Part shown: positions 3,240 to 24,196 of the stretch, one piece after another | How the letters are laid out: each line of letters opens with the position of its first letter | How positions within the stretch are numbered: the stretch's first letter is position 1 | Assembly: GCA_027460535.1 (NCBI GenBank) | Contig: JAPZAR010000002.1 | Coordinates: 1-24,196, forward strand | DNA length: 24,196 nucleotides | Reading direction: 5' to 3' | Source: Candidatus Methanoperedens sp. | GTDB lineage: Archaea > Halobacteriota > Methanosarcinia > Methanosarcinales > Methanoperedenaceae | Program-made: the position numbers and the translations under genes | Notes under the pieces: generated by a model | Told to the model about the DNA's origin: nothing | Database searches by the model: none | Seen by the model: only the letters and a program-made list of their open reading frames with translations

Positions 3240-3249
3240 AATCTATATA
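3240..3249. promoter_or_regulatory. AATCTATATA box, copy 2 (likely TATA region for 2903-3187)
   Basis: Exact 10-mer inside TATAGTGTATATAATCTATATAC, about 55 nt upstream of the ATG at 3187. It straddles the stop codon of the PhoU-like gene. Confidence 0.35.
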
Positions 3250-4241
3250 CTTCTAGAGAAGTCAATGGCTAACTCTGCGACATTTGCAGCATAATCCCCT
3301 ATCCTTTTTACGCTGTCTGCTACGAGCCCTAAGGACATGACAGCGTCAGGATTCATAGTTGTTGAAGGGTGTCTTATTCTGCGCAGATCCTCGCCTATTT
3401 TTTTATGTTCTTCAATAACCCTGTTTGCAAGTTCTACATTGCATTTTGTAAAAGAAACAACTGAATCATTGACAAGCTTATAAGAGATGATACCGATTTT
3501 AACAATATTATCGAGCATGGCGTGAGGAATTTTTTCACCTGATTCCAATATTATACCGGCAATCTTACCCGCATGGTCTGACACACGCTCTAATTGGTCG
3601 CTTGCCAGCCTGTAGTAGAAGGCCCCTGTCAATCCGAGTTCACTTTTTTCGGATATCCTTGAATGGAGTAAAATACCCATGAATTGTTTTGATATCAATA
3701 GATGGAGACGGTCAATCTCATCGTCCTGCTTTACGACTTCAGAGGCGAGAGAAACATCTTTTGTATTCATTGCCTTGATGGTATTGTCAAGCATCCACTG
3801 CACTTTTATATGCATGCGCCGAAAACTCATATCGATAGGCATATCGCCTGGATTCGAGATATCCTGAATGACCACCTTCTCGTGTGTTTCTTCGATAATC
3901 TCAATACCTATCAACTTTTTAACTATAGCCGTTATGTCTTTTCTCTGCTCATGCGTTATATTTTTAGCTTTAAGCTCAATCACGCGGTACCCGGCAACGT
4001 AGGTGGCTATTATATCTCTTATCAACGGCTCACCCACCCTTCCATCTATGGTTATGGTCTTTGGACTCTCAGCCGCAAAAGCGCCGTTTGTGGTTAAAAG
4101 AAGCGAACCGTCCTCCTGTGGATGCATATGAACAAGGGAACCGGAGGATATCCCGGCACTGACAGCCCATTTCTTGGGAAGGGAAACAACGAACGTTGAT
4201 TTACCGGTTACCTGAACTTTTCTTATTTCTGCATTGATCAT
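3243..4241 (-). CDS. AbrB/SpoVT-domain + tandem PhoU-domain protein (archaeal PhoU-type putative regulator), paralog 1
   Basis: 332 aa. The N-terminus RKVQVTGKSTFVVSLPKKWAVSAGISSGSLV is a SpoVT/AbrB swapped-hairpin motif. The remainder has two PhoU-like helical repeats (..D.EIDRLHLLI.. and ..VKRIGDYAANVAELAI..). Confidence 0.85.
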   Translation of the reverse strand: MINAEIRKVQVTGKSTFVVSLPKKWAVSAGISSGSLVHMHPQEDGSLLLTTNGAFAAESPKTITIDGRVGEPLIRDIIATYVAGYRVIELKAKNITHEQRKDITAIVKKLIGIEIIEETHEKVVIQDISNPGDMPIDMSFRRMHIKVQWMLDNTIKAMNTKDVSLASEVVKQDDEIDRLHLLISKQFMGILLHSRISEKSELGLTGAFYYRLASDQLERVSDHAGKIAGIILESGEKIPHAMLDNIVKIGIISYKLVNDSVVSFTKCNVELANRVIEEHKKIGEDLRRIRHPSTTMNPDAVMSLGLVADSVKRIGDYAANVAELAIDFSRSI

Positions 4242-7590: not shown

Positions 7591-8604
7591 ATGGAAACAC
7601 GAAAAGTTTACGTTAGCGGTGGTTCGACCTATGTAATTTCATTGCCCAAAAAATGGGTTAAGAAAACGAATTTGAAACCCGGAGACTCTCTGGTGGTTAC
7701 AGAACATGGTAGTTCATTGCAGATCGAGACCGGTGTAATTGAAAAAGAGTCACGAACGAAGGAGATTAAAATCTCTCAAGTAATATCAAGTGATTCATTA
7801 GAGCGCATATTAATCGCTTTTTATCTGGTGGGTTATGATACGATCAAGATAAAACTTGACAGAAAGGATCATCTTGCATATCGAGAGATCATACGAAATA
7901 TTCTGGACTATCTGATCGGAGTAGAAATAGTCGAGGATACCAACGAAGCAATGACACTTGAAATAATGCTTGATTACAAACGTATGAGTACCATGCAGAT
8001 ACTCCAGAGAATGTTCTCCATCAACAGATCAATGCTTCTTGATTTAGGGAAAGCTTTGAAAAGCGTGGATATCGGGCTTGCGAAAGACGTCATAGTAAGG
8101 GAGCGGGAGATCGACCGCCTCTATTTCCTGGTCGTCAGGCAGCTTAAGAGCGCAGTTGAATACCAGCAGGTCGCGGAAAAGCTGGGGATAGAAGACCAGA
8201 GAGATTGCCTGGGTTACAGGATTGTTGTTAAAGTGCTTGAGCGAATTGCGGATCATATAGAGAACATGGCAAAAAGCTATATTCAGCTGGCTGAGATCAA
8301 TAAAGACGTGCAGCTGGGTGATTTCGTGAACCTCAATATCAGCATCGCGGCCATATTTGAAAAATCTGTGAATTCGTTGTTCACAAGAGACCATGCAACG
8401 GCTGAGAAAATTTTCCAGGAATTGAAGGAGATCAAGAAATCCCTTTCTAACCTCTCAAATGAATTACTTCAGCCCAAAAACATCCAGTCGGCAATCCTGC
8501 AGAAAACCATGCTCGATAGCCTGGATAGAATAGCAAGTTACAGCGGTGACATAGCAGAAATAGCTATCAATATGTCTGCAGGCGCCCTGACTTATGAAAG
8601 CTGA
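7591..8604 (+). CDS. AbrB/SpoVT-domain + tandem PhoU-domain protein, paralog 2
   Basis: 337 aa. N-terminus RKVYVSGGSTYVISLPKKWVKKTNLKPGDSLVV (AbrB-like). PhoU repeats include REREIDRLYFLVVRQL and LDRIASYSGDIAEIAI. Same architecture as 3243-4241, roughly 30% identical by eye. Confidence 0.85.
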   Translation: METRKVYVSGGSTYVISLPKKWVKKTNLKPGDSLVVTEHGSSLQIETGVIEKESRTKEIKISQVISSDSLERILIAFYLVGYDTIKIKLDRKDHLAYREIIRNILDYLIGVEIVEDTNEAMTLEIMLDYKRMSTMQILQRMFSINRSMLLDLGKALKSVDIGLAKDVIVREREIDRLYFLVVRQLKSAVEYQQVAEKLGIEDQRDCLGYRIVVKVLERIADHIENMAKSYIQLAEINKDVQLGDFVNLNISIAAIFEKSVNSLFTRDHATAEKIFQELKEIKKSLSNLSNELLQPKNIQSAILQKTMLDSLDRIASYSGDIAEIAINMSAGALTYES

Positions 8605-13392: not shown

Positions 13393-13461
13393 TTATCGCC
13401 TATAATTTTTAACAATTGCAAAAATATATCACCGGGATAAGCTATAGAGGGATATCGATTT

Positions 13462-13502
13462 GCGGAGGTTGCCCAGACCGGTCAAAGGCGCCAGCTTGAG
13501 GG
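13462..13502 (+). pseudogene. Orphan 5' half of a tRNA-Leu-like gene (acceptor 5' strand through anticodon loop only)
   Basis: GCGGAGGTTGCCCAGACCGGTCAAAGGCGCCAGCTTGAGGG matches the first 41 nt of the intact tRNA at 13615 except in the acceptor and anticodon-stem strands. I found no 3' half (GCTGG, T-arm, CCTCCGC) downstream. Confidence 0.6.
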
Positions 13503-13614
13503 TTATGCTCGAAGCATGGCACAAGATTTAAGTCTGGGTATCACGAAAATAGCATAAAAAAAGATGTAACTTAACAGATATAAACCTTGCGCAAAAGATA
13601 GCGCAAACATATAT

Positions 13615-13702
13615 GCGAGGGTTGCCCAGACCGGTCAAAGGCGATAGCTTGAGGGGCTATTTCCGTAGGGATTCATGGGTTCAAATCCCATCCCTCGCAC
13701 CA
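13615..13702 (+). tRNA. tRNA-Leu (anticodon GAG), class II with long variable arm, encoded CCA
   Basis: Hand fold: GCGAGGG-UU-GCC/CAGACCGGUCAAA/GGC-G-AUAGC/UUGAGGG/GCUAU-UUCCGUAGGGAUUC-AUGGG/UUCAAAU/CCCAU-CCCUCGC-A-CCA. A TATA-like GATATAAA sits about 30 nt upstream. Confidence 0.9.
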
Positions 13703-13880: not shown

Positions 13881-14060
13881 CACACAAAGAAGACCTTTGC
13901 AAAGGCAATGAGGCGAAGATTTCAGTTCACAGCGATCGACGAGGCGCATAAGATCAAGGCAAAGGATAGCGAGCAGGCAAAAGCAGTCAGAATGCTGAAG
14001 GCAAGGTACAAGCTCCTCTCGACTGGAACGCCAATAGCCAACTATCCAAGGAACATTTTC
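13881..14060 (+). pseudogene. Relic of an SNF2/Rad54-family helicase (motif II-III segment only)
   Basis: The reading frame gives ...RRFQFTAIDEAHKIKAKDSEQAKAVRMLKARYKLLSTGTPIANYPRNIF. This is the DEAH box followed by the (L/S)TGTPI.N motif with SNF2-typical spacing. There is no Walker A region upstream (in-frame stop at 13806-13808). Similarity ends at 14060, where the minus-strand operon begins. The rest of track ORF 13908-14264 is antisense to a real gene. Confidence 0.6.
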
Positions 14061-14302
14061 TATGAAGAATCTTTTCCGTTTGCTTCGATTATTGGAATTG
14101 TAACTATTTTATCGTCACCTATTTGGGTTACCGAGAATTCCTTTTTAGCAAGCTCTTTGAATAATTCCTTCTGTTCGGCGGTCATCATAGACTCAATTTG
14201 TTGTTCTGATAGATTATTAACATCTAAGCCAGAAAGACTTTGCAGATTTGAAACATCTAACTGATTTTCTTGTTTTTGTGTATATGCACTTACCGCCGTC
14301 AT
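14060..14302 (-). CDS. Small acidic, Gln/Glu-rich soluble protein (80 aa), last gene of the ABC operon
   Basis: Its ATG overlaps the ATPase stop (ATGA at 14299-14302). It has no TM segment and I recognise no family. Confidence 0.5.
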   Translation of the reverse strand: MTAVSAYTQKQENQLDVSNLQSLSGLDVNNLSEQQIESMMTAEQKELFKELAKKEFSVTQIGDDKIVTIPIIEANGKDSS

Positions 14303-15264
14303 GCAGATTCTTCTATCAGCTTCAGGAACACTCGTTGCAGATCCATCCTCTCCTCCTCGAATTTGGAAATTGTTCCGCCCATGGACTTCACAGCCATTGC
14401 TATTTCCATGCGCACGCCCGGATCCGTCAGAAGCGAGACATGACCGTTTGCTTTCTCCACTGAACGCATACCTTTCAATCCCTTCAATCCCTCCACAACC
14501 CTCTGCATTGGCAGATCATTTACTTCAAGTGCATACCTGACGCCTACCTTTCCCCTCACCCTATCTCTGAGTTCCTCCACTGTGCCTTCAGCAAGCAGCT
14601 TGCCCCTAGCTATAACCCCTATCCTATCGCATATCTCCTCAACCTCTGCCATGCTGTGACTGCTCAAAAATACGGTTACGCCTTTTTCTTTGCTGAGTTT
14701 TTTAATCAAATCCCGCATCATCTGGGCTCCCAGGGGATCGATGCCGCTGGTAGGTTCATCAAGGAACAGCACGCTAGGCTCGTTTATCAGTGCCTGAGCG
14801 AGACCGAAACGTTTGCGCATGCCGGTTGAGAATCCGCCTGTTCTCTGGTCTACAGCACGGTTAAGACCAACCAGTTCAAGCAGGTCAACGATACGTTTCT
14901 CCCTTGTCTTTTCATCGATATCGTAGAGCTTGGCATAGAACCTGAGGTTCTGCCTTGCAGTGAGGTTATCATAATAGCCAGCGGGTTCTGGTAAAACCCC
15001 AGTGGCTTCCCGTATCTTTATAATCTCTCTCACAATATCATAGCCTGCTACTTTGCCTGTGCCGCTTGTAGGTTCAAGCAAGCCTATGAGCATCTTCATA
15101 GTAGTGGTCTTGCCTGCGCCATTAGGACCAACAAAGCCAAAGACCTCCCCCTTTTTAACCCTCAGGTTAAGCGAATCCACTGCTATAAGTTCATGTTTCT
15201 TACCAAAACTCTTGGTAAGATTTATAGTTTCTATAATGTTTTCATTTCGATCGATTTTATTCAT
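14299..15264 (-). CDS. ABC transporter ATP-binding protein (ABC-2/DrrA-NosF-like) with a DUF4162-type C-terminal extension
   Basis: Walker A GPNGAGKTT, Q-loop, degenerate signature FSTGMRKR, Walker B VLFLDEPTSGIDP, H-loop SSHSM, and a ~90-aa C-terminal domain. Confidence 0.92.
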   Translation of the reverse strand: MNKIDRNENIIETINLTKSFGKKHELIAVDSLNLRVKKGEVFGFVGPNGAGKTTTMKMLIGLLEPTSGTGKVAGYDIVREIIKIREATGVLPEPAGYYDNLTARQNLRFYAKLYDIDEKTREKRIVDLLELVGLNRAVDQRTGGFSTGMRKRFGLAQALINEPSVLFLDEPTSGIDPLGAQMMRDLIKKLSKEKGVTVFLSSHSMAEVEEICDRIGVIARGKLLAEGTVEELRDRVRGKVGVRYALEVNDLPMQRVVEGLKGLKGMRSVEKANGHVSLLTDPGVRMEIAMAVKSMGGTISKFEEERMDLQRVFLKLIEESA

Positions 15265-15266
15265 AT

Positions 15267-16835
15267 TTATCTTCTCCCGAATTTGCGTATTATAAACACC
15301 AGCACAATAATAGCCAGCACCACCATCCCGATTCCTGCCACTCCGCTTGATCCTGATTTCTCCACATTGATTTTAATGCTCTTTTCCTCGCCCTGAATAT
15401 CACCACTCTTGGCACGCATGAATATCTCTTTTATTCCTGAACCTGCATCTGCCTGCGCAGTGATCTCAACAGGGATATTCCTCGATTCACCGGCTTCCAG
15501 TGTTTCTATTGTCCCGAAGCTCCTTATCTGGGTACTGATACCGCTGACATCCTGTATCTCAAGCTGAACGCTGCTCAGTGCCACATCCCCGCCATTTCTA
15601 AGGGTTACACTGATTTCTGTCGAACCGCCCGGATTAAGCGTTACCTCGCTGTAGCTCGGATAAAGGCTGAGTATCTGGCTTTTCTCAAGACCTTTATTGA
15701 CCGTGACCTCAAGTCTCTGGGACACGCTTCTATCATCTCCACTAACAGCACCCACGAGTACAGGGTATATCCCGTCGCTGGCATTCGGGGAAGGTTTGAC
15801 TTTCACCTTGAAATTCTGCTCACCTTTGGCAGGCAATTCAAGGGTAGTAAGCGTCACTTTATCATCTGTATCTGAGAGAAACACAACATTCCAGCCTTCT
15901 GGCTTGTTCAATGTCTTTAGATTCAGCAAGAGCTGCTGGTCAAACCTGTTTTTCAGGGATACGGTAAAATCCGCCGTATTCTCAGGGCGAACCGCAAGAC
16001 CGGCTATGCTTGAATGCATCTCAAGATACGCGCTCAACGCCAGTGTCGGATCGAGATCAGGATTGATGCTGACACTCAGCGGCAGTGAAATGATCTGGCT
16101 GCCGCTTTCCATAGATGCCCCTATCAGGACTTCGTAATCTCCTTCGCTGGTATTGACAGGGGGTTGGGCTATGACATCAAAATCCTGCGTGCTTTGTGCG
16201 GGGATACTCAGCTTTGTAATCCTTGCGCCATCTGAGGAGAGCATGTCCACGCCCCATTCGTTTGGCTTTGTGAGCACTGAGAGCTTTACGGTGGCCCTGC
16301 TGTCGTATTTATTCTCTATGGTGATACTGAACTTAACGGGTAAGCCGGGATGGGTCTTTCTGCCTGGAATGCTTGAATATATATCGAGATTAGGCATAGC
16401 ATTTCTGTCCACAGTTGCCACGAACTCGCGATATATCAATTCATAATTAGTTACATCCTCACCATAGGGTTGTAAACCTATCCTTATCAAATAGGCTCCA
16501 TCGCTGGTATTAACCGGCACCCGAAGTCTTAAGACAATTTGCTTTGAATCGGTTGAATCGGATGGGAAGGTTATCTGGCTGACCTGATTATTGTCTGCGT
16601 AAAAACCTGCAAGCCAGTTGTCAGGTTTTTTGTCTATGAAGAGCTTGACAGAGACGCTTTTGGTGGTGTTGTATACCTTTTGCAGAGTAGTGGTGAATTC
16701 GACTGTGTCGCCTGGACGAACAACTTTGCCGGTTAAGTCCGTGATGGCTGTGATCTGGGAAAATTCAGCACTGGCTAAAGGTATAATAAATATGAGTATA
16801 GTTATAACGCCGAGGAGTCTTAAGATTCTATTCAT
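15267..16835 (-). CDS. Surface-anchored protein with four NEW3/CARDB-like Ig-fold repeats (signal peptide + C-terminal TM anchor)
   Basis: 522 aa. Signal peptide MNRILRLLGVITILIFIIPLASA. Four ~115-aa repeats. The first three end in P(V/P)N(T/A)S(D/E)G.Y..L(I/V)G and contain KP(D/N/E).W. C-terminus GVAGIGMVVLAIIVLVFIIRKFGRR. Its ATG overlaps the upstream permease stop (ATGA). Confidence 0.7.
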   Translation of the reverse strand: MNRILRLLGVITILIFIIPLASAEFSQITAITDLTGKVVRPGDTVEFTTTLQKVYNTTKSVSVKLFIDKKPDNWLAGFYADNNQVSQITFPSDSTDSKQIVLRLRVPVNTSDGAYLIRIGLQPYGEDVTNYELIYREFVATVDRNAMPNLDIYSSIPGRKTHPGLPVKFSITIENKYDSRATVKLSVLTKPNEWGVDMLSSDGARITKLSIPAQSTQDFDVIAQPPVNTSEGDYEVLIGASMESGSQIISLPLSVSINPDLDPTLALSAYLEMHSSIAGLAVRPENTADFTVSLKNRFDQQLLLNLKTLNKPEGWNVVFLSDTDDKVTLTTLELPAKGEQNFKVKVKPSPNASDGIYPVLVGAVSGDDRSVSQRLEVTVNKGLEKSQILSLYPSYSEVTLNPGGSTEISVTLRNGGDVALSSVQLEIQDVSGISTQIRSFGTIETLEAGESRNIPVEITAQADAGSGIKEIFMRAKSGDIQGEEKSIKINVEKSGSSGVAGIGMVVLAIIVLVFIIRKFGRR

Positions 16836-17743
16836 GTACTGATGTCCTTCCTGAGGAATGCAATGAAAGCTGTTATAAGCAAGATAACTGGAGTTACGAT
16901 TATCACGGTTAAATTCATCCAGAACTCACTGAACCACTGGGAAAGGGTAAAGCGGGTGTCTAATATTCCTTTTATTGCACTTGGTTCAGGTCCAATACCT
17001 CCCCATCCAACGTAACCCTGACCCGTTATAGTTTCAGCATAGTGGTAGAGAGGCGATATATTTGCGAGGTTCAGTGCGAGTTCAAAGGAAGCACTACCTG
17101 TTCTGATTGGTTGGCCTGTAAAAATGATTGCAAGCCCAGCGACAATTGTACCGAATACAGCACATAAACCCAGCCAGATTACAACGTTGTAGACCAGCGA
17201 ATCTGTTGCTTCTTTTACTACGATAGAGAGAAGAACACTGATTCCCAGAAAGATGAGACTGTAGAAGAATGTTATTGTGATGAATAAAAATAACCTGCTC
17301 ATTTCTATTTCGCTTATAGTGCCACCCAGGATGAGAAGCAAACTACTAATAGATACAACCGTAGAAATACCCAGAACAAAGGCTAATGTTATCATTGCTC
17401 CGAGAAATTTACCGATAATAATGTTATCCCTGAATACAGGATGCGTTAATAGAACGTTTAAAGATCCAGACTTTTGTTCTTTAACTATCGCATCAAACCC
17501 AAGAGCAATACCTATTAAAGGGGAAAAATAACCTATTATCAGGGCTACTCCTGAAAATCCAGCCATGAGCAAAGTACTTCCATTTGTAAAACTCCCGGCT
17601 TCCAGTCCCTTCTCATAGCTAAAGCTGAAGATAATAAGCGTGAAAGTAATTAGCAGAACTAAGAACACAGGACTAAAGATATTGTCTGCAAATTCTTTCT
17701 GAGCAATAACGATCGAATTTTTAAAACTTATTTTCATATCCAT
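16832..17743 (-). CDS. ABC-2 family permease (NosY/GldF-like class), paralog B, 303 aa
   Basis: The track ORF extends to 17848, but the ATG at 17743 (MDMKISFKNSIVIAQKEFADN) aligns with the paralog's N-terminus and overlaps its stop (TGATG). Six predicted TM segments. Shares GIALGFD.IVKE.KS.S.NVLLTHPVFRDNII with paralog A. Confidence 0.8.
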   Translation of the reverse strand: MDMKISFKNSIVIAQKEFADNIFSPVFLVLLITFTLIIFSFSYEKGLEAGSFTNGSTLLMAGFSGVALIIGYFSPLIGIALGFDAIVKEQKSGSLNVLLTHPVFRDNIIIGKFLGAMITLAFVLGISTVVSISSLLLILGGTISEIEMSRLFLFITITFFYSLIFLGISVLLSIVVKEATDSLVYNVVIWLGLCAVFGTIVAGLAIIFTGQPIRTGSASFELALNLANISPLYHYAETITGQGYVGWGGIGPEPSAIKGILDTRFTLSQWFSEFWMNLTVIIVTPVILLITAFIAFLRKDIST

Positions 17744-18651
17744 CACCAGGTTATATCCTGACGCAGGAACGCTATGAATGACGCGATAAATAGAATAATT
17801 GGTAAAGCGATAAGAACTACAAGGTTTTCCCAGTATTCTTCTATCCATTTATCCAGAGAACTGCCTGTATCGAAAATTCCTAGGCTTAATTTGCTTGTCC
17901 CAACATTTACGCTGCCCCAACTAAAATCGGGTGCACCCTTAACAGTTTCAGCATAGTGGTGTAGTGGTGTAAATTGTTGCAGGTTTGCATTGAGTTCAAG
18001 TCTTGGCTTATAAAAAAGAGACGAATCGGAAGATACCTGTCCTGTTGCAATAGATGCTATCACGAAAATGATAGCACCATATACTACAACCAGGTTGAGC
18101 CAGACAGCTATCCCGCAAATCAAGGAGTTTGAAGCACTTTTCGAGACTATCGAGAGGAATATGCTAATGCCTAAAAATACAGAAATGTAAAGAAATGTTA
18201 AGATGGCGAAAATTAGTACGCGCTCAAGCTCAAGAAGGGTGACCTGCACTCCGGTTACGGCGAGCACTGTTCCGACCGAGGCAATTACAGCTATGCCCAC
18301 AACCAGCGCCAGTGTTGCCATAGACCCCATAATCTTACCTGCTATTATGTTGTCCCTGAATACAGGATGAGTTAAAAGAACATTTACTGAAGCCGATTTT
18401 CGCTCTTTAACTATCATATCAAACCCAAGTGCAATTCCCAGTAGCGGCAGGAAAAGTGCGATAATCTGGGCGACGTCAATGAAATTTCCCCCATATCTAA
18501 ATACTTCACTTCCATCAGTAGCTGCTCTATAGCTCATTGAGAATATTATCAGGGTAACAATTGAAAGTAATGCCAGAAACCTCATGCTCCAGAGGTTATC
18601 TGCGAACTCCTTCTGTGCAATTACAAACACATTTCCCATATTCCGTTTCAT
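17743..18651 (-). CDS. ABC-2 family permease, paralog A, 302 aa
   Basis: MKRNMGNVFVIAQKEFADNLW.... AGGAGG lies 4 nt upstream of the ATG, inside the tail of the preceding gene. Same topology and motifs as paralog B, both ending in FIAFLR.DI. Confidence 0.8.
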   Translation of the reverse strand: MKRNMGNVFVIAQKEFADNLWSMRFLALLSIVTLIIFSMSYRAATDGSEVFRYGGNFIDVAQIIALFLPLLGIALGFDMIVKERKSASVNVLLTHPVFRDNIIAGKIMGSMATLALVVGIAVIASVGTVLAVTGVQVTLLELERVLIFAILTFLYISVFLGISIFLSIVSKSASNSLICGIAVWLNLVVVYGAIIFVIASIATGQVSSDSSLFYKPRLELNANLQQFTPLHHYAETVKGAPDFSWGSVNVGTSKLSLGIFDTGSSLDKWIEEYWENLVVLIALPIILFIASFIAFLRQDITW

Positions 18652-20365
18652 TTATCCTCCTCATTTTTTTAATCTGGTAAATTGTTAATATTAATGTGAA
18701 CACTGCAAATATAATGCTAAACCCGGGTGTTCTGGGCGTATTAACACCCACAGTAGGTGCAGGCGTTGCTGTTGTAATGACAATCGGCTCAGGTGATTGC
18801 TCTTTGATTGTAATAGACATATTTGCAGTCCTAAAGCCCTGTTTGACAGCACTTAACCCGAAATTTCCCGCTTCTTTGAAGCTATATTCTAAAAATCCGC
18901 TTTCATTGGTTTTGCCTATTTCCCTGCCGTTAAGAAGAACTGTTGCATTCTCGACAGGCTTTGATATGGATTTAACTTCAATGAGAGCTGCATCCCCTTG
19001 TTTAATAGAACTTGGAGCATAAATGGATATAACTTCATCGTATCCCTTCATTTTCAATAGATATACCTGTTCTCTCCCGGTAGACCTGCCAACGGTAAAA
19101 AGTATCCTGCTACCATCAGGGCTTAAGTATATTTTGTTGCTGTTATAAACATCTGTGGGCACATTCTTAACAAGCAGCAATCGTTCAGTTCCATCTGGTT
19201 TTATTTTAACAATAGAATCGTTAGTCATATAGTATATTTCATTGTCCATTCCCCAGACATACGCACTTTCCATTCTTGCAGAGTAGCTTTCAGGCAGAGT
19301 AATTTTATCAGTTCCATCCGAATTTACTATATAAAGGCTACTAGCCCTGGCGGAACGAAAGGCAATTTTATCGCCATTGGGACTCCATGAAATTTGACTT
19401 GCCCACTTCTCATCTACCGTTTTTGTAGTTCCAGTGTCTATATAATATATTCGAAGGTTTTCAAAGTCTCCATTTTCATTATGCTTAGTAAAAATTATTT
19501 TTGTTCCATCGGGGCTCCATGAGGCAAGGTAAAAGTCTTCCCCTTTTTCGATTAATCTGAGATTGCTGCCATCAGCATCTATTACATAAAGGGCGTCTAA
19601 AGTTATTATGACTAACTTTTTACCATCAGGCTTCCAGCTTAGTCCTATGGCTTGCATATCACTGTTAGTTGTCAGTTGCTGAACAGATGCATTATCGACA
19701 TTAACTGTATAAACTTCACCATCTTTGTCGCCAATGAAAGCGATTTTTTCCCCGTCAGGACTCAATTTTATACCATCCTCATAATCTGCAAAGCTCCAGC
19801 CCAGAGGAAGCTGATTAACGGTCGAATTATCAGCCAAAATGGAACCATTTCTGTATGAAACGTATTTTTGGGTTTTCTCATCGCAAGGATTCAGAACCAT
19901 GAATACAATTTTATCTCCATCTGGACTCCACCAGGCAGAATCTAAAAAAGCTGCAGTATTGTTCTTTGCTGCCCGGATGCTTACCTCGGCTCTTGCAATG
20001 TTAGTAACCTCACTGCCGTCCGCATACATCCAGAAAAGAGTGGAAGCGCGCTCATGGAGACCGAATTCACCGCATGGGACACGTTTTGTGTCACCTTTCG
20101 TCGCCATATTCCTGTGAGTTAAAATCAATAACCTTGACCCATCAGGAGACCACAGGAAATTGCTATCTGCGACGGTATAGAAAATGTCGAACATATTAGA
20201 GTCAATTGATTTTAGTACCTCTTTATCCATAATATTAGTGATCTCGACAAAGCTTTCAACTTTATCAGCATCTGTGGTCAGATTTGAGGCGCTCGCTGTG
20301 GTTATCTGGGCTATGGATAAGAGCATACTGATTGATATTATTAGTGGACCTGTTTTTTGGTTCAT
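18596..20365 (-). CDS. Secreted PD40 (TolB-like) beta-propeller protein with a PEGA/CarboxypepD_reg-like domain and a PGF-CTERM sorting signal
   Basis: 589 aa with a signal peptide. Seven (W/L)(S/K)P(D/N)G..(I/L) PD40-type repeats. NATVLLNGREIGKTNESGFLEYSF..G.F.LSAVK.GF is a small beta-sandwich. Then a Thr/Pro linker TTATPAPTVGVNTPRT, PGF, the hydrophobic SIIFAVFTLILTIY, and QIKKMRR. Confidence 0.8.
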   Translation of the reverse strand: MNQKTGPLIISISMLLSIAQITTASASNLTTDADKVESFVEITNIMDKEVLKSIDSNMFDIFYTVADSNFLWSPDGSRLLILTHRNMATKGDTKRVPCGEFGLHERASTLFWMYADGSEVTNIARAEVSIRAAKNNTAAFLDSAWWSPDGDKIVFMVLNPCDEKTQKYVSYRNGSILADNSTVNQLPLGWSFADYEDGIKLSPDGEKIAFIGDKDGEVYTVNVDNASVQQLTTNSDMQAIGLSWKPDGKKLVIITLDALYVIDADGSNLRLIEKGEDFYLASWSPDGTKIIFTKHNENGDFENLRIYYIDTGTTKTVDEKWASQISWSPNGDKIAFRSARASSLYIVNSDGTDKITLPESYSARMESAYVWGMDNEIYYMTNDSIVKIKPDGTERLLLVKNVPTDVYNSNKIYLSPDGSRILFTVGRSTGREQVYLLKMKGYDEVISIYAPSSIKQGDAALIEVKSISKPVENATVLLNGREIGKTNESGFLEYSFKEAGNFGLSAVKQGFRTANMSITIKEQSPEPIVITTATPAPTVGVNTPRTPGFSIIFAVFTLILTIYQIKKMRRINETEYGKCVCNCTEGVRR

Positions 20366-20505
20366 TTACTTCTCATCATATCATCATTTTATTATAAAAA
20401 AATAAGTGGTTTATAGATAAGAGCGTACTGATTAATATTATTAGTGGATCTGTTTTTTTGTTCAATTACTTTTCACCATATCATCATTTTATTATAAAAA
20501 AAATA
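20312..20505. repeat. Tandem direct duplication (two ~94-nt units, 100-nt period) of the promoter and first 18 codons of the beta-propeller gene
   Basis: Unit A is 20312-20404 (contains the real ATG at 20365). Unit B is 20412-20505 (ATG replaced by TTG). They are about 90% identical by hand alignment. Confidence 0.85.
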
Positions 20506-20545: not shown

Positions 20546-20983
20546 CTATGTCAGAGTGCGCTTCATTGCGAACATATAATAGGGATTTTTGATATCCAGC
20601 TGTATTTTGTGATCCCAAGATAGCGTTGATCCATAGAGTCGCAGAGTTTTTCCGGCATTAACTGGCGCATTCAGAGGATTACCACCGGTATCTGTGATTT
20701 TCTGTTGAACAGAGAGGTAATTAGCGAGATCCAGTTGATAGTTCAGATATTCACCGTTTTGAGTGTTGAGCCTGTAATAGTCATCCTCATCACTAGGGAT
20801 GGTAAATTGGCCGTTTGCATATATAGACCAACTATTAAGGGGGATTGATGATTCTAGCGAACTTGCTTGGCCTGCAGTATTCCCTGCATCTCTTCCTCCT
20901 ATGATTGGATCTGCCAGTGCTGCACCACTGAATAAGCTCAGTACCATGAGAACCATTGCTCCTATTTTTAAGCTTGCTTTCAT
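20546..20983 (-). CDS. Small secreted protein with a PPC (pre-peptidase C-terminal)-like domain
   Basis: 145 aa. Signal peptide MKASLKIGAMVLMVLSLFSGAALA. A..L.....G.F.IPSDEDDYYRL....GEYLNYQL resembles the D.D(W/Y)Y.F core of PPC domains. GGAGG lies 9 nt upstream. An A-run on + (oligo-T on the gene strand) follows the stop. Confidence 0.5.
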   Translation of the reverse strand: MKASLKIGAMVLMVLSLFSGAALADPIIGGRDAGNTAGQASSLESSIPLNSWSIYANGQFTIPSDEDDYYRLNTQNGEYLNYQLDLANYLSVQQKITDTGGNPLNAPVNAGKTLRLYGSTLSWDHKIQLDIKNPYYMFAMKRTLT

Positions 20984-21010
20984 TCTTTTTCACCTCCTTT
21001 TTATATTACT

Positions 21011-21163
21011 CCAGAGGCAAAACTAGGCAAGCCTTTAATACCTTGAAGGTCATGACCTTATTTTGCCTTCGGGCCATTGGGGTTCAACCGTACTTTAGTA
21101 GGTTCAGTTGAACCCTACGTTTTTCATGGTCAGTAAAATCCAGTTGTTAGAGTTTTTATCTCC
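21011..21163 (-). repeat. Conserved non-coding upstream element, copy 1 (28 nt upstream of the 20983 start)
   Basis: Aligns with 24046-24196. A 78-nt block (21077-21154) is identical to 24110-24187, and the ATG-proximal 66 nt is about 80% identical. It has stop codons in all three frames of the gene strand. Confidence 0.85.
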
Positions 21164-21804: not shown

Positions 21805-22788
21805 TTACTTTCTTTTAATTAATAGCACTGCCAGCATTGCTGAAATTGCGAAAATTACTTCGAACGCAGGTGTTTTTGGCGTTGCGGTCGTTGGTGATGC
21901 CGTCGGTTTCGCCGTTGTGGTTGCCGGTGTAAATTGGAGAGCAGGGTATGGATGTTGGCAGCCGGGTTCTCCCACAAAGCCAGCATCGGAGCCGCTTTTA
22001 CCGTAGTGACATCTGAAACAAAAACCGTTATTGACTGGGATATCAGTGAAGTTATCTCGATTCGTATCCAAATTTGTTGGTTTTGTGTCCAGATTACCGT
22101 GACAGGTGCTGCATTTGCTGTCGTTCCCGCCGTAATCAACGCCGTGACTCCCTTCACCAAATACCCATTTCGAAAAAGGTGGATTGATTGAGGTCATTGT
22201 GCTCGGATGAATGGGTGCAGATGGTGTATAGTCAGTTATATTCGTTAGTTCTGGAGATATCGAAACTACATATTTAATTTCGAGTTTCTGGGGTTTGGTC
22301 TTAAGAGACTGTATAATATAAAAAGAACCTTCCCCTACCACGCTAGTACCATCGGAGCACCAGACTCTTGGTGGCACTCCATGGGTTTCAGTAAGCATCT
22401 TAATCTGGTAGGTCGGATCTGAAAGGTTGCCAATAATTGATACCCCCAGATTCTCTCCAAAGAACTGGTTGATATCCTTCGTTGGGTCATCAATGCGTGT
22501 TGGAATGAGGTTGTCTGTAAGGTCATTCACCCTGATGAAATAATCTCCTGGCGCTATGCCGCTCAAATTAAACAGAGCCGTAAAATTTGCTGCAGTCCCG
22601 GTTACTGTTGTTATAGTTCCGTTATAATCCATTCGGAGCAATTCAGCCTTCGTGATGGACTTTGCCCTGATGATATCCCCTTTGCTATCGAGGCTGGGCT
22701 GCAGACTGACAGTCAATGTTCCAGCAGCAGCAAGCCCTGTACCTAATATGAGGCATATTACAAATACTGCAATGATGTGGTATTTCAT
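21805..22788 (-). CDS. Secreted two-haem c-type cytochrome with a large non-haem N-terminal domain and a PGF-CTERM-like (PAF) anchor signal
   Basis: I prefer the ATG at 22788 (GGGAGG upstream; MKYHIIAVFVICLILGTGLAAAG signal peptide), giving 327 aa. CxxCH motifs are CSTCH (22099-22113) and CFRCH (22006-22020). C-terminus: TPATTTAKPTASPTTATPKT-PAF-EVIFAISAMLAVLLIKRK. Confidence 0.7.
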   Translation of the reverse strand: MKYHIIAVFVICLILGTGLAAAGTLTVSLQPSLDSKGDIIRAKSITKAELLRMDYNGTITTVTGTAANFTALFNLSGIAPGDYFIRVNDLTDNLIPTRIDDPTKDINQFFGENLGVSIIGNLSDPTYQIKMLTETHGVPPRVWCSDGTSVVGEGSFYIIQSLKTKPQKLEIKYVVSISPELTNITDYTPSAPIHPSTMTSINPPFSKWVFGEGSHGVDYGGNDSKCSTCHGNLDTKPTNLDTNRDNFTDIPVNNGFCFRCHYGKSGSDAGFVGEPGCQHPYPALQFTPATTTAKPTASPTTATPKTPAFEVIFAISAMLAVLLIKRK

Positions 22789-22931
22789 TCTTAAGTTCCT
22801 CCCGGTAAGCTGTAATTTATATTTCAATTCTTTTCATATATAAAAACGGCGGCCCGGCTGTTATTGAGATTCGAACCGATGGTGTTCTACCCACTGTTCT
22901 CATATTAATTTCATCGACTTCAAATAAAATG

Positions 22932-23014: not shown

Positions 23015-24019
23015 TTAGGGCATACGACCTGTCTGAAGGATGACTTCAGAAGGCGATCTTATATTGACACCCATTGTTCCACATGCTGCTGTTGCTGATT
23101 GGTTTATCCAAGATGTCCATGATGGTGTTCTACCGGCTAAATGCAAATTTGTAAAGTCATTTCCTCCTGATAACTGTCTGCAGTTGTTTATGTTATACGA
23201 TTCTAACGTAACATAACTATTCGGAAATTTAAGATTCGTATATGCATATTTGCTTGATGCAACGCCAGAATTAATGTCATATGTCCATATTAACCAATGT
23301 GTTGGTTGGGCAGTCTGGAGCTGCATATATCCATATATGGAATCGCCCACATTAACTCTTGTGATGGTCTCATTGTGAAAATAACTCCCGTTTATTCCAT
23401 ACCATGACGAAATATCCCAGGAATTTCGTCCGTTCTGTCCCCATTCCAATACGGGCTGGAGAATGGAAGCTCCGGAGTTCTCACTGTTCTGCATTGCTGT
23501 AAAGTAAAATATGGTCTGATGCGGGCTTGCCAGGTCGAGTGGAGCGGATGGAACATTCCAAATTCCTTCGAAAAGGGTGTTACCGGCGCTATTGATATCT
23601 CTTGCCCGTTCTGTCCAGCCATTAATTGCTGGTAGCGCGTCGCCGGCAGATGCTTTGACGAGATTTCCGACTCTGTAGCTGCATTCCTCTGCGACATAAT
23701 CACACGACATGTCCAGTACTTCATTATCCGGTACTTTAATTTTTTTCGATAACTTATCCATAGCTTTTTTTGTTGCGTCTAGGCGCTCTGCAATAGAACT
23801 TGTCTTTGGTATCTTAACAGTCCCGCTTTCGATTATGGCCTTATCGAAGTCTGATTCATTCATTATGTGACGACGGTCGGGGGTCATAATTTTTCCAGAC
23901 TTCACGACTTTGGTTTGCTCATTTGCTCCTTGCGCGCTTACCACAGCTACAAAGGCAATGCTAACGATCAACAAAGCCGCAAGCAGTGCCCCTAATTGCA
24001 TTCCTTTACTTTTTTTCAT
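23015..24019 (-). CDS. Secreted protein; possible eqolisin-like (G1 family) glutamic peptidase with an N-terminal pro-region
   Basis: 334 aa. Signal peptide MKKSKGMQLGALLAALLIVSIAFVAVVSAQG. GGAGG lies 7 nt upstream. The segments WNVPSAP, SILQPVLEW, VNVGDSIYGYM and YVTLESYN align by eye with the scytalidoglutamic peptidase blocks ANVPSAS, AILQTGFDW, ISEGDSIQMSV and AEFIIEDFE. The catalytic Gln (codon 23456-23458) and Glu (23201-23203) equivalents are retained. Confidence 0.4.
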   Translation of the reverse strand: MKKSKGMQLGALLAALLIVSIAFVAVVSAQGANEQTKVVKSGKIMTPDRRHIMNESDFDKAIIESGTVKIPKTSSIAERLDATKKAMDKLSKKIKVPDNEVLDMSCDYVAEECSYRVGNLVKASAGDALPAINGWTERARDINSAGNTLFEGIWNVPSAPLDLASPHQTIFYFTAMQNSENSGASILQPVLEWGQNGRNSWDISSWYGINGSYFHNETITRVNVGDSIYGYMQLQTAQPTHWLIWTYDINSGVASSKYAYTNLKFPNSYVTLESYNINNCRQLSGGNDFTNLHLAGRTPSWTSWINQSATAACGTMGVNIRSPSEVILQTGRMP

Positions 24020-24045
24020 ATTTTTCCTCCTTTAATTTTTCTTAT

Positions 24046-24196
24046 CCCGGAGGCAAACAGGCAAATCTTTAATACTTTGAAAGTCTTAACCTTATTTTGC
24101 CTACGGGCCTTGGGGTTCAACCGTACTTTAGTAGGTTCAGTTGAACCCTACGTTTTTCATGGTCAGTAAAATCCAGTTGTTAGAGTTATTATCTTT
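24046..24196 (-). repeat. Conserved non-coding upstream element, copy 2 (27 nt upstream of the 24019 start; runs off the window)
   Basis: See copy 1. The identical 78-nt core is at 24110-24187. Confidence 0.85.

Follow-up and report, generated by a model that had tools for sequence, protein, structure and literature searches.

A five-gene ABC-2 transporter locus of Methanosarcinales: modular architecture, a candidate RNA leader and possible roles at the cell surface

The closest described relatives of the locus presented here are two machines of the ATP-binding cassette (ABC) type. NosDFY (PDB 7o0y), which matures nitrous oxide reductase, combines the NosF ATPase and a homodimer of the NosY permease with NosD, a large extracytoplasmic beta-helix protein, and has no solute-binding protein. 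GldAFG, a component of Bacteroidetes gliding motility, likewise includes an accessory membrane protein with a large external domain. The LanFEG and BcrAB immunity pumps offer a further pattern, in which one ATPase serves two paralogous ABC-2 permeases. Where should one place an archaeal operon that resembles all of these and seems to belong to none? Such an operon lies on the minus strand, at positions 14060–20365, of contig JAPZAR010000002.1 from a metagenome-assembled genome (MAG) of the methane-oxidising archaeon Candidatus Methanoperedens; the whole contig, 24,196 bp long, was analysed and is called the window below. Five of its genes, encoding a PD40 beta-propeller protein, two ABC-2 permeases (permA and permB), a NEW3/COG1470 accessory protein and an ABC ATPase, are conserved together across the Methanosarcinales. 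In this order of archaea, one to four cassettes of PD40, permA and permB have been added around one NEW3-ATPase pair, and these cassettes diverge much faster than the NEW3-ATPase core.

An earlier sequence-only reading of the window had proposed a unit of six translationally coupled genes. The ORF list and a reading of the sequence itself recover the six minus-strand open reading frames (ORFs) and the five junctions between them exactly as then described. The PD40 gene comes first (18596–20365), and its product carries a PEGA domain and a PGF-type C-terminal anchor. It overlaps permA (17743–18651, 302 aa) by 56 nt at 18596–18651, so that the sequence GAGGAGG, 4 nt 5′ of the permA ATG at 18651, falls within the PD40 tail. 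The TGATG at 17745–17741 joins permA to permB (16832–17743, 303 aa, or 301 aa in the NCBI annotation, which takes the next ATG as start), and the ATGA at 16835–16832 joins permB to the NEW3 gene (15267–16835, 522 aa). The ATPase gene (14299–15264, 321 aa, DrrA/GldA/NosF-like) follows as TAA-AT-ATG, with a 2-nt gap at 15266–15265, and its own end forms an ATGA (14302–14299) with an 80-aa ORF (14060–14302). The unit itself needs redrawing: five of the six genes are conserved, the 80-aa ORF is strain-specific and a doubtful member of the system, and a small secreted-protein gene upstream of PD40 had been left out.

The conservation of the system was followed by tblastn over 47 fetched loci (designated by L numbers), and all ORFs were clustered for the 42 sources left after removal of duplicate and unrelated loci. 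The order PD40-permA-permB-NEW3-ATPase recurs in Methanoperedens, Methanosarcina, Methanolobus, Methanococcoides, Methanomethylovorans and ANME-2 (anaerobic methanotrophic archaea) contigs; the co-occurrence of PD40 and NEW3 genes with the permease pair, which the sequence-only reading had proposed as a check, thus extends over at least six genera. Among the 42 clustered sources, NEW3 is found in 37, the permeases in 37 (86 copies), the ATPase in 36 and PD40 in 26 (34 copies). In 11 of the 47 loci the ATPase gene is followed by a third permease of the ABC2_membrane_2 type, which shares 41–44% identity with A and B. Cassettes surrounding a single NEW3-ATPase pair number four in L045, three in L026, and two in L025, L029 and L038. 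The Methanosarcina loci hold up to four of them, and in several the NEW3-ATPase genes are transcribed divergently from PD40-permA-permB; the single transcript expected from the gene overlaps of the window is therefore not a general property of the system.

The components do not evolve at the same pace. Within Methanoperedens, including the paralogous loci L009, L010 and L012 of one genome (BLZ2), identity to the window reaches 81–91% for NEW3 and 85–91% for the ATPase, against 22–52% for PD40 and 54–83% for the permeases. At the nucleotide level, identity falls sharply just past the NEW3 start in some loci: in L007 it is 84.6% over 14299–16975, then 66%. Together, the contrast between components and this abrupt drop point to a conserved engine carrying fast-evolving, exchangeable specificity cassettes. 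Group II energy-coupling factor (ECF) transporters provide a working analogy, with one conserved engine (here NEW3-ATPase) and several exchangeable specificity modules, although their fold and direction of transport are unrelated and the sharing of the ATPase is here inferred from gene counts. Some Methanoperedens loci look like a minimal NEW3-ATPase type existing alongside the cassette type, since no PD40-permAB match is found in L009 within the 2.4 kb of sequence available upstream of NEW3, and in L006 NEW3 is preceded by just one permease. A possible bacterial host, the “Anaerolineales” contig L042 (JAIWAT010000022.1), was discarded: it gives the same identities as the archaeal locus L005, its small upstream protein is 100% identical, and the contig is almost certainly archaeal, having been mis-binned into a bacterial MAG.

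The two permeases both match PF12679 (ABC2_membrane_2) over profile positions 2–283 of 283, with 121.3 bits for permA and 111.1 bits for permB (cut-off 27.2). They are 49% identical, and both carry NVLLTHPVFRDNII. Distinct A and B types occur in every locus, and the duplication already suspected from the window is an old one. The only significant match of permA among PDB sequences is NosY (7o0y_D, E 3.5e-10). The ATPase scores 102.5 bits against ABC_tran, above the Pfam cut-off, and its translation contains a Walker A motif (GPNGAGKTT), a signature (STGMRKR), a Walker B motif (LFLDEPTSG) and an H-loop (SSHSM). In sequence it is most similar to the nucleotide-binding domains of ABCA3, ABCA4 and ABCA1, with NosF at 6e-44. 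In Candidatus M. nitroreducens ANME-2d, the ATPase gene appears as two ORFs of 140 and 172 aa (L002, 9570–10535; also L003, L004 and L031), a possible frameshift or pseudogene.

How does the locus compare with the described machines? Its permease and ATPase show a remote, though significant, sequence relationship to NosY and NosF, and it shares with NosDFY a large extracytoplasmic partner encoded alongside and the absence of a solute-binding protein, as had been noticed from the window. It differs in that the permeases would form a heterodimer rather than a homodimer, in that a PD40 propeller and a NEW3 protein with four immunoglobulin (Ig)-like domains replace the beta-helix of NosD, in that NosL and NosZ are missing from the Methanoperedens cluster, and in that its cassettes are multi-copy. 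GldA is the second-best NCBIfam model for the ATPase, after drrA, and GldF the best named model for the permeases; NosFY and GldAF are thus the nearest named relatives, in line with the likeness first proposed. The GldAFG substrate is likewise unknown. The equivalog cut-offs are however missed by a wide margin (GldA 225 bits vs 402.6; GldF 20.8 and 21.5 vs 288.5), the NCBIfam matches of the six proteins include no GldG model, and the Methanoperedens system is archaeal. As in LanFEG and BcrAB, one ATPase accompanies two paralogous ABC-2 permeases, and membrane-bound regulators lie nearby in other genomes; yet the ATPase reaches only 200.1 bits of the 309.75 set for TIGR03740, PD40 and NEW3 have no counterpart in those pumps, and no lantibiotic genes are found in the window or among the recurrent neighbours. 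The system resembles an accessory-protein ABC-2 machine but, to judge from sequence, is no member of NosDFY, GldAFG, LanFEG or Tol: all its equivalog scores lie far below the cut-offs, and it lacks the partners by which those systems are defined (NosD/L/Z, GldG, a lantibiotic cluster, Pal).

The NEW3 protein belongs to the COG1470/NEW3 family, whose members are named “COG1470 family protein” or “uncharacterized membrane protein”, as seen from its match to NPCBM_assoc (PF10633, 61.3 bits; cut-off 24.4) and from two features derived here from the superfamily: a C-terminal transmembrane helix ending in RKFGRR and the adjacent ABC ATPase gene. An AlphaFold2 model (predicted local distance difference test 79.5) comprises a signal helix, beta-sandwiches at residues 28–142, 150–257, 271–379 and 389–491, and a C-terminal helix at 499–519. 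Foldseek returns generic tandem Ig/MG matches with this model, which confirms the fold without giving a functional lead, and the NEW3 profile retrieves nothing significant among PDB sequences. Domain calls made from the window thus stand for PD40, PEGA, both ABC2_membrane_2 permeases, NEW3 and the ABC ATPase, while CARDB in the NEW3 protein (20.8 bits vs 22.7) and the ATPase tail formerly known as DUF4162 (DrrA1-3_C, 20.6 vs 27.4) remain below the Pfam thresholds.

Word-indexed protein searches, with a single sequence or a profile, stayed within the Methanosarcinales, and an exhaustive HMMER profile search was needed for distant members. This search yields 1,239 representative clusters at E≤1e-3 and 454 at E≤1e-10, the majority of which align through the C-terminal anchor. 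The superfamily spans bacteria and archaea, and nearly all of its members end with a hydrophobic helix followed by ...(R/K)(K/R)(F/Y)(G/K/S)RR at the extreme C-terminus. Both representatives better than 1e-100 come from the Methanosarcinales branch, which forms a tight clade. Gene context was examined for two distant members: a haloarchaeon-like contig carries NEW3, a DrrA-type ATPase and one ABC2_membrane_2 permease, and a Clostridiaceae contig carries NEW3 and the ATPase before it ends. In every locus examined the NEW3/COG1470 gene lies beside an ABC ATPase gene. The NEW3-ATPase pair, which recurs in such distant contigs, is therefore the ancient core of the system, joined by one permease where the contig continues. 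A search of the literature found no functional study of the system, of a COG1470/NEW3 and ABC module, or of any homologue.

The PD40 protein is the extracellular part of the cassette. Both the PD40 and the PEGA-like calls of the sequence-only reading exceed the Pfam cut-offs (72.7 bits for PD40; 22.4 vs 20.8 for PEGA). An AlphaFold2 model (predicted template-modelling score 0.70) shows one large propeller at about 36–440, a PEGA-like sandwich at 447–521 and a C-terminal helix at 551–575. The propeller resembles that of TolB: the family profile (A5) matches TolB at 1e-17, and Foldseek finds TolB together with 1l0q, a surface-layer propeller of M. mazei, and DPP IV, generic propeller matches that confirm the fold and provide no functional lead. 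Contrary to a true TolB, it scores 83.8 bits against the equivalog (cut-off 343.15), in an alignment confined to residues 197–360 of the propeller, has no Tol-Pal partner, and carries an added PEGA domain and PGF anchor. The assignment of a PGF-CTERM end from the window is supported in part: the hidden Markov models (PF18204 and its NCBIfam equivalent) do not match the C-terminal 70 residues of the protein even at E≤10, but the PGF tripeptide, hydrophobic helix and basic tail after a Thr/Pro-rich linker are present in the window protein (TPRTPGFSIIFAVFTLILTIYQIKKMRR...) and in 21 of 21 orthologues examined. We thus regard this end as a PGF-type anchor whose processing is putative.

The window protein also has extra residues beyond its basic tail, and these explain the long overlap with permA. 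In the closest relative, L053, the sequence reads GGATTAAATGA, and the PD40 stop overlaps the permA start as ATGA. Compared with the closest relatives, positions 18655–18665 of the window change from GGATTAAATGA to GGATAAATG: the loss of one T (GGA-TAAATG in the window) removes the normal PD40 stop and adds 17 codons. The 56-nt overlap is therefore peculiar to this strain. The deletion is probably real, because a separate metagenome assembly of the same strain (L048) also carries it, and the extension, which comes after the basic tail, should be cytoplasmic and harmless.

Upstream of PD40 lies the gene that had been left out. In most complete loci (L001, L002, L005, L010, L012, L013, L015, L023–L025 and others) PD40 is preceded by a signal-peptide gene of 130–157 aa, and the family shares a PPC-like D-x-D-W-Y/W motif. 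In the window this conserved position is occupied by a 145-aa protein (20546–20983, minus strand) with a signal peptide and a PPC-like DDYYRL motif, 48–50% identical to its L012 and L013 copies and without a Pfam match. Together with its structured leader, this gene belongs to the PD40 unit. Between the two genes lie a T-rich stretch and a 100-bp tandem duplication (20312–20502; 1.9 copies, 91% match by Tandem Repeats Finder). The duplication spans an AT-rich, TATA-like region and the first 18 or so PD40 codons, with TTG in the upstream copy where the gene has ATG, and PD40 may accordingly have its own promoter.

The leader is a non-coding element of about 138 nt placed directly 5′ of the ATG of the small secreted-protein gene (copy 1, 20981–21118, 138 nt, minus strand). 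A second copy (24017–24151, minus strand) precedes the gene of a 334-aa secreted protein (23015–24019, minus strand) that has no Pfam, NCBIfam or PDB match. The covariance model R1, derived from seven copies of the leader, finds both in the window, with 158.5 bits (E 7e-43) for copy 1 and 136.6 bits (E 1.6e-36) for copy 2; a cmscan of the window against Rfam gives no match to the leader, the tRNA alone being found at E≤1. The same model detects about 40 copies in Methanosarcinales loci (L001–L045). In metagenomes (L054–L133), a pattern scan followed by R1 finds 122 copies, mostly full-length, on 80 contigs, with up to five or six per contig.

The secondary structure of the leader is supported by covariation. 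In the genome set 20 of 27 pairs are compensatory and 87.7% of cells pair, against 26–54% with slid partners. In the independent metagenome set the figures are 26 of 27 pairs and 88.9%, against 35–54%; helices 2 and 3 are there partly fixed by the search pattern, but helix 1 is free of it and covaries at 11 of its 11 pairs. The fold consists of an 11-bp P1 hairpin, a long P2–P4 hairpin, and an unpaired A-rich tail containing the Shine-Dalgarno (SD) sequence and the AUG. For both window copies the minimum-energy fold is the consensus fold (z −3.6). A switch in which a leader CCUCC would pair with the GGAGG of the SD was considered as well: the minimum-energy folds of both copies leave SD and AUG single-stranded, and a role as stabiliser or protein-binding element would therefore be at least as likely. 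What does the leader precede? A crude test detects a signal peptide at the start of 101 of the 109 ORFs downstream of it. The families include two clusters of reprolysin-like M12 metallopeptidases, Peptidase_C39_2-like proteins and DUF6345, along with weak trypsin-like and Zn-phospholipase-C-like matches and Cys-rich proteins with hydrophobic tails. The leader is accordingly a candidate for a new archaeal cis-acting RNA; structured RNAs of this kind are, to our knowledge, rare in archaea.

Regulators accompany these genes in other genomes. A recurrent pair (L001, L002, L005, L012, L025, L028 and others, not in the window) consists of a PPC-domain secreted protein of 150–170 aa followed by a membrane-anchored protein with two winged helix-turn-helix (HTH) domains of the HTH_HVO_0163_N type. 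Among the 42 clustered sources the membrane-anchored regulator is found in 20, the PPC-domain protein in 15, a LolA-like protein in 5 and Yip1 in 4. On the 80 leader-selected contigs the PPC-protein gene occurs 25 times, the membrane-HTH gene 19 times and both together 17 times, often divergent from the leader gene; LolA-like genes occur on 17 of these contigs and core ABC genes on 6. Because it usually diverges from a leader-bearing gene, the pair likely represents the sensor and the regulator of a regulon.

What would such a machine do? The sequence-only reading had put forward a candidate module for export or surface-protein maturation associated with the envelope or S-layer, a role that remains putative. 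We tentatively favour a modular machine of the envelope, with an ABC-2 transporter (type V, exporter-type) as its basis, acting as the envelope-maintenance or surface-clearing output of a secreted-hydrolase regulon, a reading we would place somewhat short of probable. It follows from the structured leader common to many secreted proteins, several of them peptidases, and from the membrane-tethered HTH neighbour seen elsewhere. The ATPase dimer would power a permA/permB heterodimer. NEW3 would be integral to the complex as an accessory subunit, with its single C-terminal helix and cytoplasmic RKFGRR tail holding it in place and its four Ig-like domains facing outward. Outside the cell, the PGF-anchored PD40 propeller would provide each cassette with its own receptor or hand-off partner. 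If the system works like NosDFY and other ABC-2 transporters, the hydrolysis of ATP would expel a hydrophobic or peptidic substrate from the outer face of the membrane; alternatively, it may transmit force to the external partners. PD40 and NEW3 would not themselves be exported by the transporter, because both have their own signal peptides.

Several points weigh against this envelope-machine reading. Every subunit contact in it is inferred, the relation of the permeases to NosY comes from sequence over about 200 residues, and an ABC-2 fold alone is no proof of export. The distant NEW3-ATPase loci lie in unrelated contexts, so that the ancestral role of the pair need not involve hydrolases. 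Finally, with core ABC genes on 6 of the 80 leader-selected contigs, the link between regulon and ABC machine is loose, though most of these contigs are short. A wider claim can be built on the same material: an undescribed modular surface system specific to Methanosarcinales, in which exchangeable PD40/permease-pair cassettes sit on a shared NEW3-ATPase engine, within a secreted-hydrolase regulon that carries the new structured leader and is under the control of membrane-tethered HTH regulators and their PPC-domain partners, the leader being a new archaeal class of cis-acting RNA for secretome genes. In this full form we hold it to be conceivable but unlikely.

The envelope machine has to be weighed first against self-protection, that is immunity or detoxification. 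A heterodimeric pump like LanFEG or BcrAB would clear membrane-active peptides, toxins or the cell's own secreted hydrolases, with PD40 and NEW3 as extracellular traps and one threat per cassette. The LanFEG-like set of two paralogous permeases and one ATPase fits this idea, as do the scores of the ATPase against the lantibiotic-protection subfamily (200 bits) and drrA (286 bits), and the multiplied, fast-diverging cassettes are what an arms race over specificity would produce. The surroundings also agree in part: membrane-tethered HTH regulators adjoin the locus in 20 of the 42 sources, and secreted M12 metallopeptidases, C39-like peptidases and Cys-rich hydrophobic proteins are encoded nearby. 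A membrane-tethered HTH regulator beside an immunity pump recalls BcrR. All the NCBIfam scores are however under their cut-offs, drrA and GldA included; no toxin or bacteriocin gene is conserved beside the operon in the 42 sources, the distant NEW3-ATPase loci show no antagonism context, and neither LanI-like nor LanH-like proteins are present. Self-protection is the foremost of the rival explanations, yet an unlikely one.

Extraction of a membrane lipid or of a lipid-anchored surface component, in the manner of ABCA or Lol systems, with delivery to extracellular carriers, is rather improbable. It would account for the nearness of the ATPase to the ABCA3, ABCA4 and ABCA1 domains, but such similarity is common to ABC-2 ATPases generally. 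LolA/TP_0789-like genes are present in 5 of the 42 sources and in 17 of the 80 leader-selected contigs, and in one case (L012) such a gene lies within the operon itself, where it separates the small-protein gene from PD40; no such gene exists in the window or in most loci, nor are lipid-biosynthesis genes linked to the operon. The PGF-type anchor of PD40 would suit a lipid-related role, the PGF motif being lipid-modified in Haloferax.

Still less likely, and indeed very doubtful, is the delivery of a cofactor for the maturation of an extracellular metalloprotein after the manner of NosDFY. NosY is the sole solved sequence relative of the permease, NosF is a good match to the ATPase, and a suitable client seems to be at hand 1.4 kb upstream: a 340-aa secreted c-type cytochrome (21805–22827, minus strand) with two CxxCH motifs and, unlike PD40, a PGF-CTERM anchor above the Pfam cut-off. 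The sequence-only reading had pointed to this neighbour. It is adjacent in the window, yet it does not recur among the 42 clustered sources, and was rejected as a functional partner. Pfam and NCBIfam find no NosD among the operon proteins; a NosD/beta-helix protein is encoded just downstream, convergently, in L053 only. No NosL, NosZ or metallochaperone is present, the partners are a propeller and an Ig-repeat protein rather than a beta-helix, and no Nos model figures among the NCBIfam matches of the permeases. Chance juxtaposition of genes that do not work together can practically be dismissed, for although the two halves are divergently transcribed in several Methanosarcina loci and the sixth ORF does seem to be an accidental neighbour, in at least six genera the other five have remained neighbours through rearrangements, and their starts and stops overlap.

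Two features make the system unusual: the modular arrangement of its cassettes, and its place among secreted-hydrolase genes with a common structured RNA leader. As the Methanosarcinales version of the widespread COG1470/NEW3 superfamily, with exchangeable and fast-evolving extracellular cassettes on what appears to be a conserved engine, it offers clues to how that superfamily may work. If true, the ABC machine proposed here would open a first functional way into the widespread COG1470-ABC module. The cell surface of ANME-2d and Methanosarcina governs extracellular electron transfer, aggregation and contact with viruses, which makes a multi-copy surface machine relevant, and the presence of the locus in Methanosarcina, a genus with genetically tractable species, makes it probably testable. 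A leader shared by signal-peptide genes, many of them encoding peptidases, would also open the question of how archaea coordinate their secretome.

There remain the 3′ end of the operon and the rest of the window. The 80-aa ORF has coding-like codon usage, but it is seen solely on contigs of the same strain: it has no tblastn match in the 47 fetched loci, no Pfam or NCBIfam family, no phage match and no relative, and was for this reason discarded as a component of the system. In L053 the operon ends at the ATPase. Nucleotide similarity to every related locus stops at 14291–14312, at the ATPase stop codon, and the synteny break suspected from the window is thus a true one at this end. A fragment of an SNF2-helicase gene (13908–14058, plus strand) marks the breakpoint; its 45 residues match PF00176 positions 126–170 of 290 (E 4e-9), and it abuts the stop codon of the 80-aa ORF on the opposite strand. 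The ORF is probably real but accidental, or a gene remnant, at a rearrangement scar. In L033, a related locus, the adjacent ribosomal-protein operon is inverted with respect to the ABC genes.

Other observations concern more distant surroundings. About 5 kb from the operon, L053 (8884–13700) carries a cluster resembling those for ribosomally synthesized and post-translationally modified peptides, with a radical SAM enzyme, two M16 peptidases, an ABC ATPase and an ABC-2 permease; it is found in this one locus only. In the window, two paralogous proteins of 332 aa (3243–4241, minus strand) and 337 aa (7591–8604, plus strand), whose L048 counterparts are annotated MazE_antitoxin plus PhoU, flank a gene for a 900-aa fusion of ADP-forming acetyl-CoA synthetase and acetyltransferase, and are unrelated to the ABC operon. 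Lastly, a 45-nt direct repeat, 89% identical (13458–13502 and 13611–13655, plus strand), copies the 5′ half of the tRNA-Leu(GAG) gene (13615–13702) 153 nt upstream of it; it may have been left behind, att-like, by an integrated element, or represent a second tRNA that has decayed.

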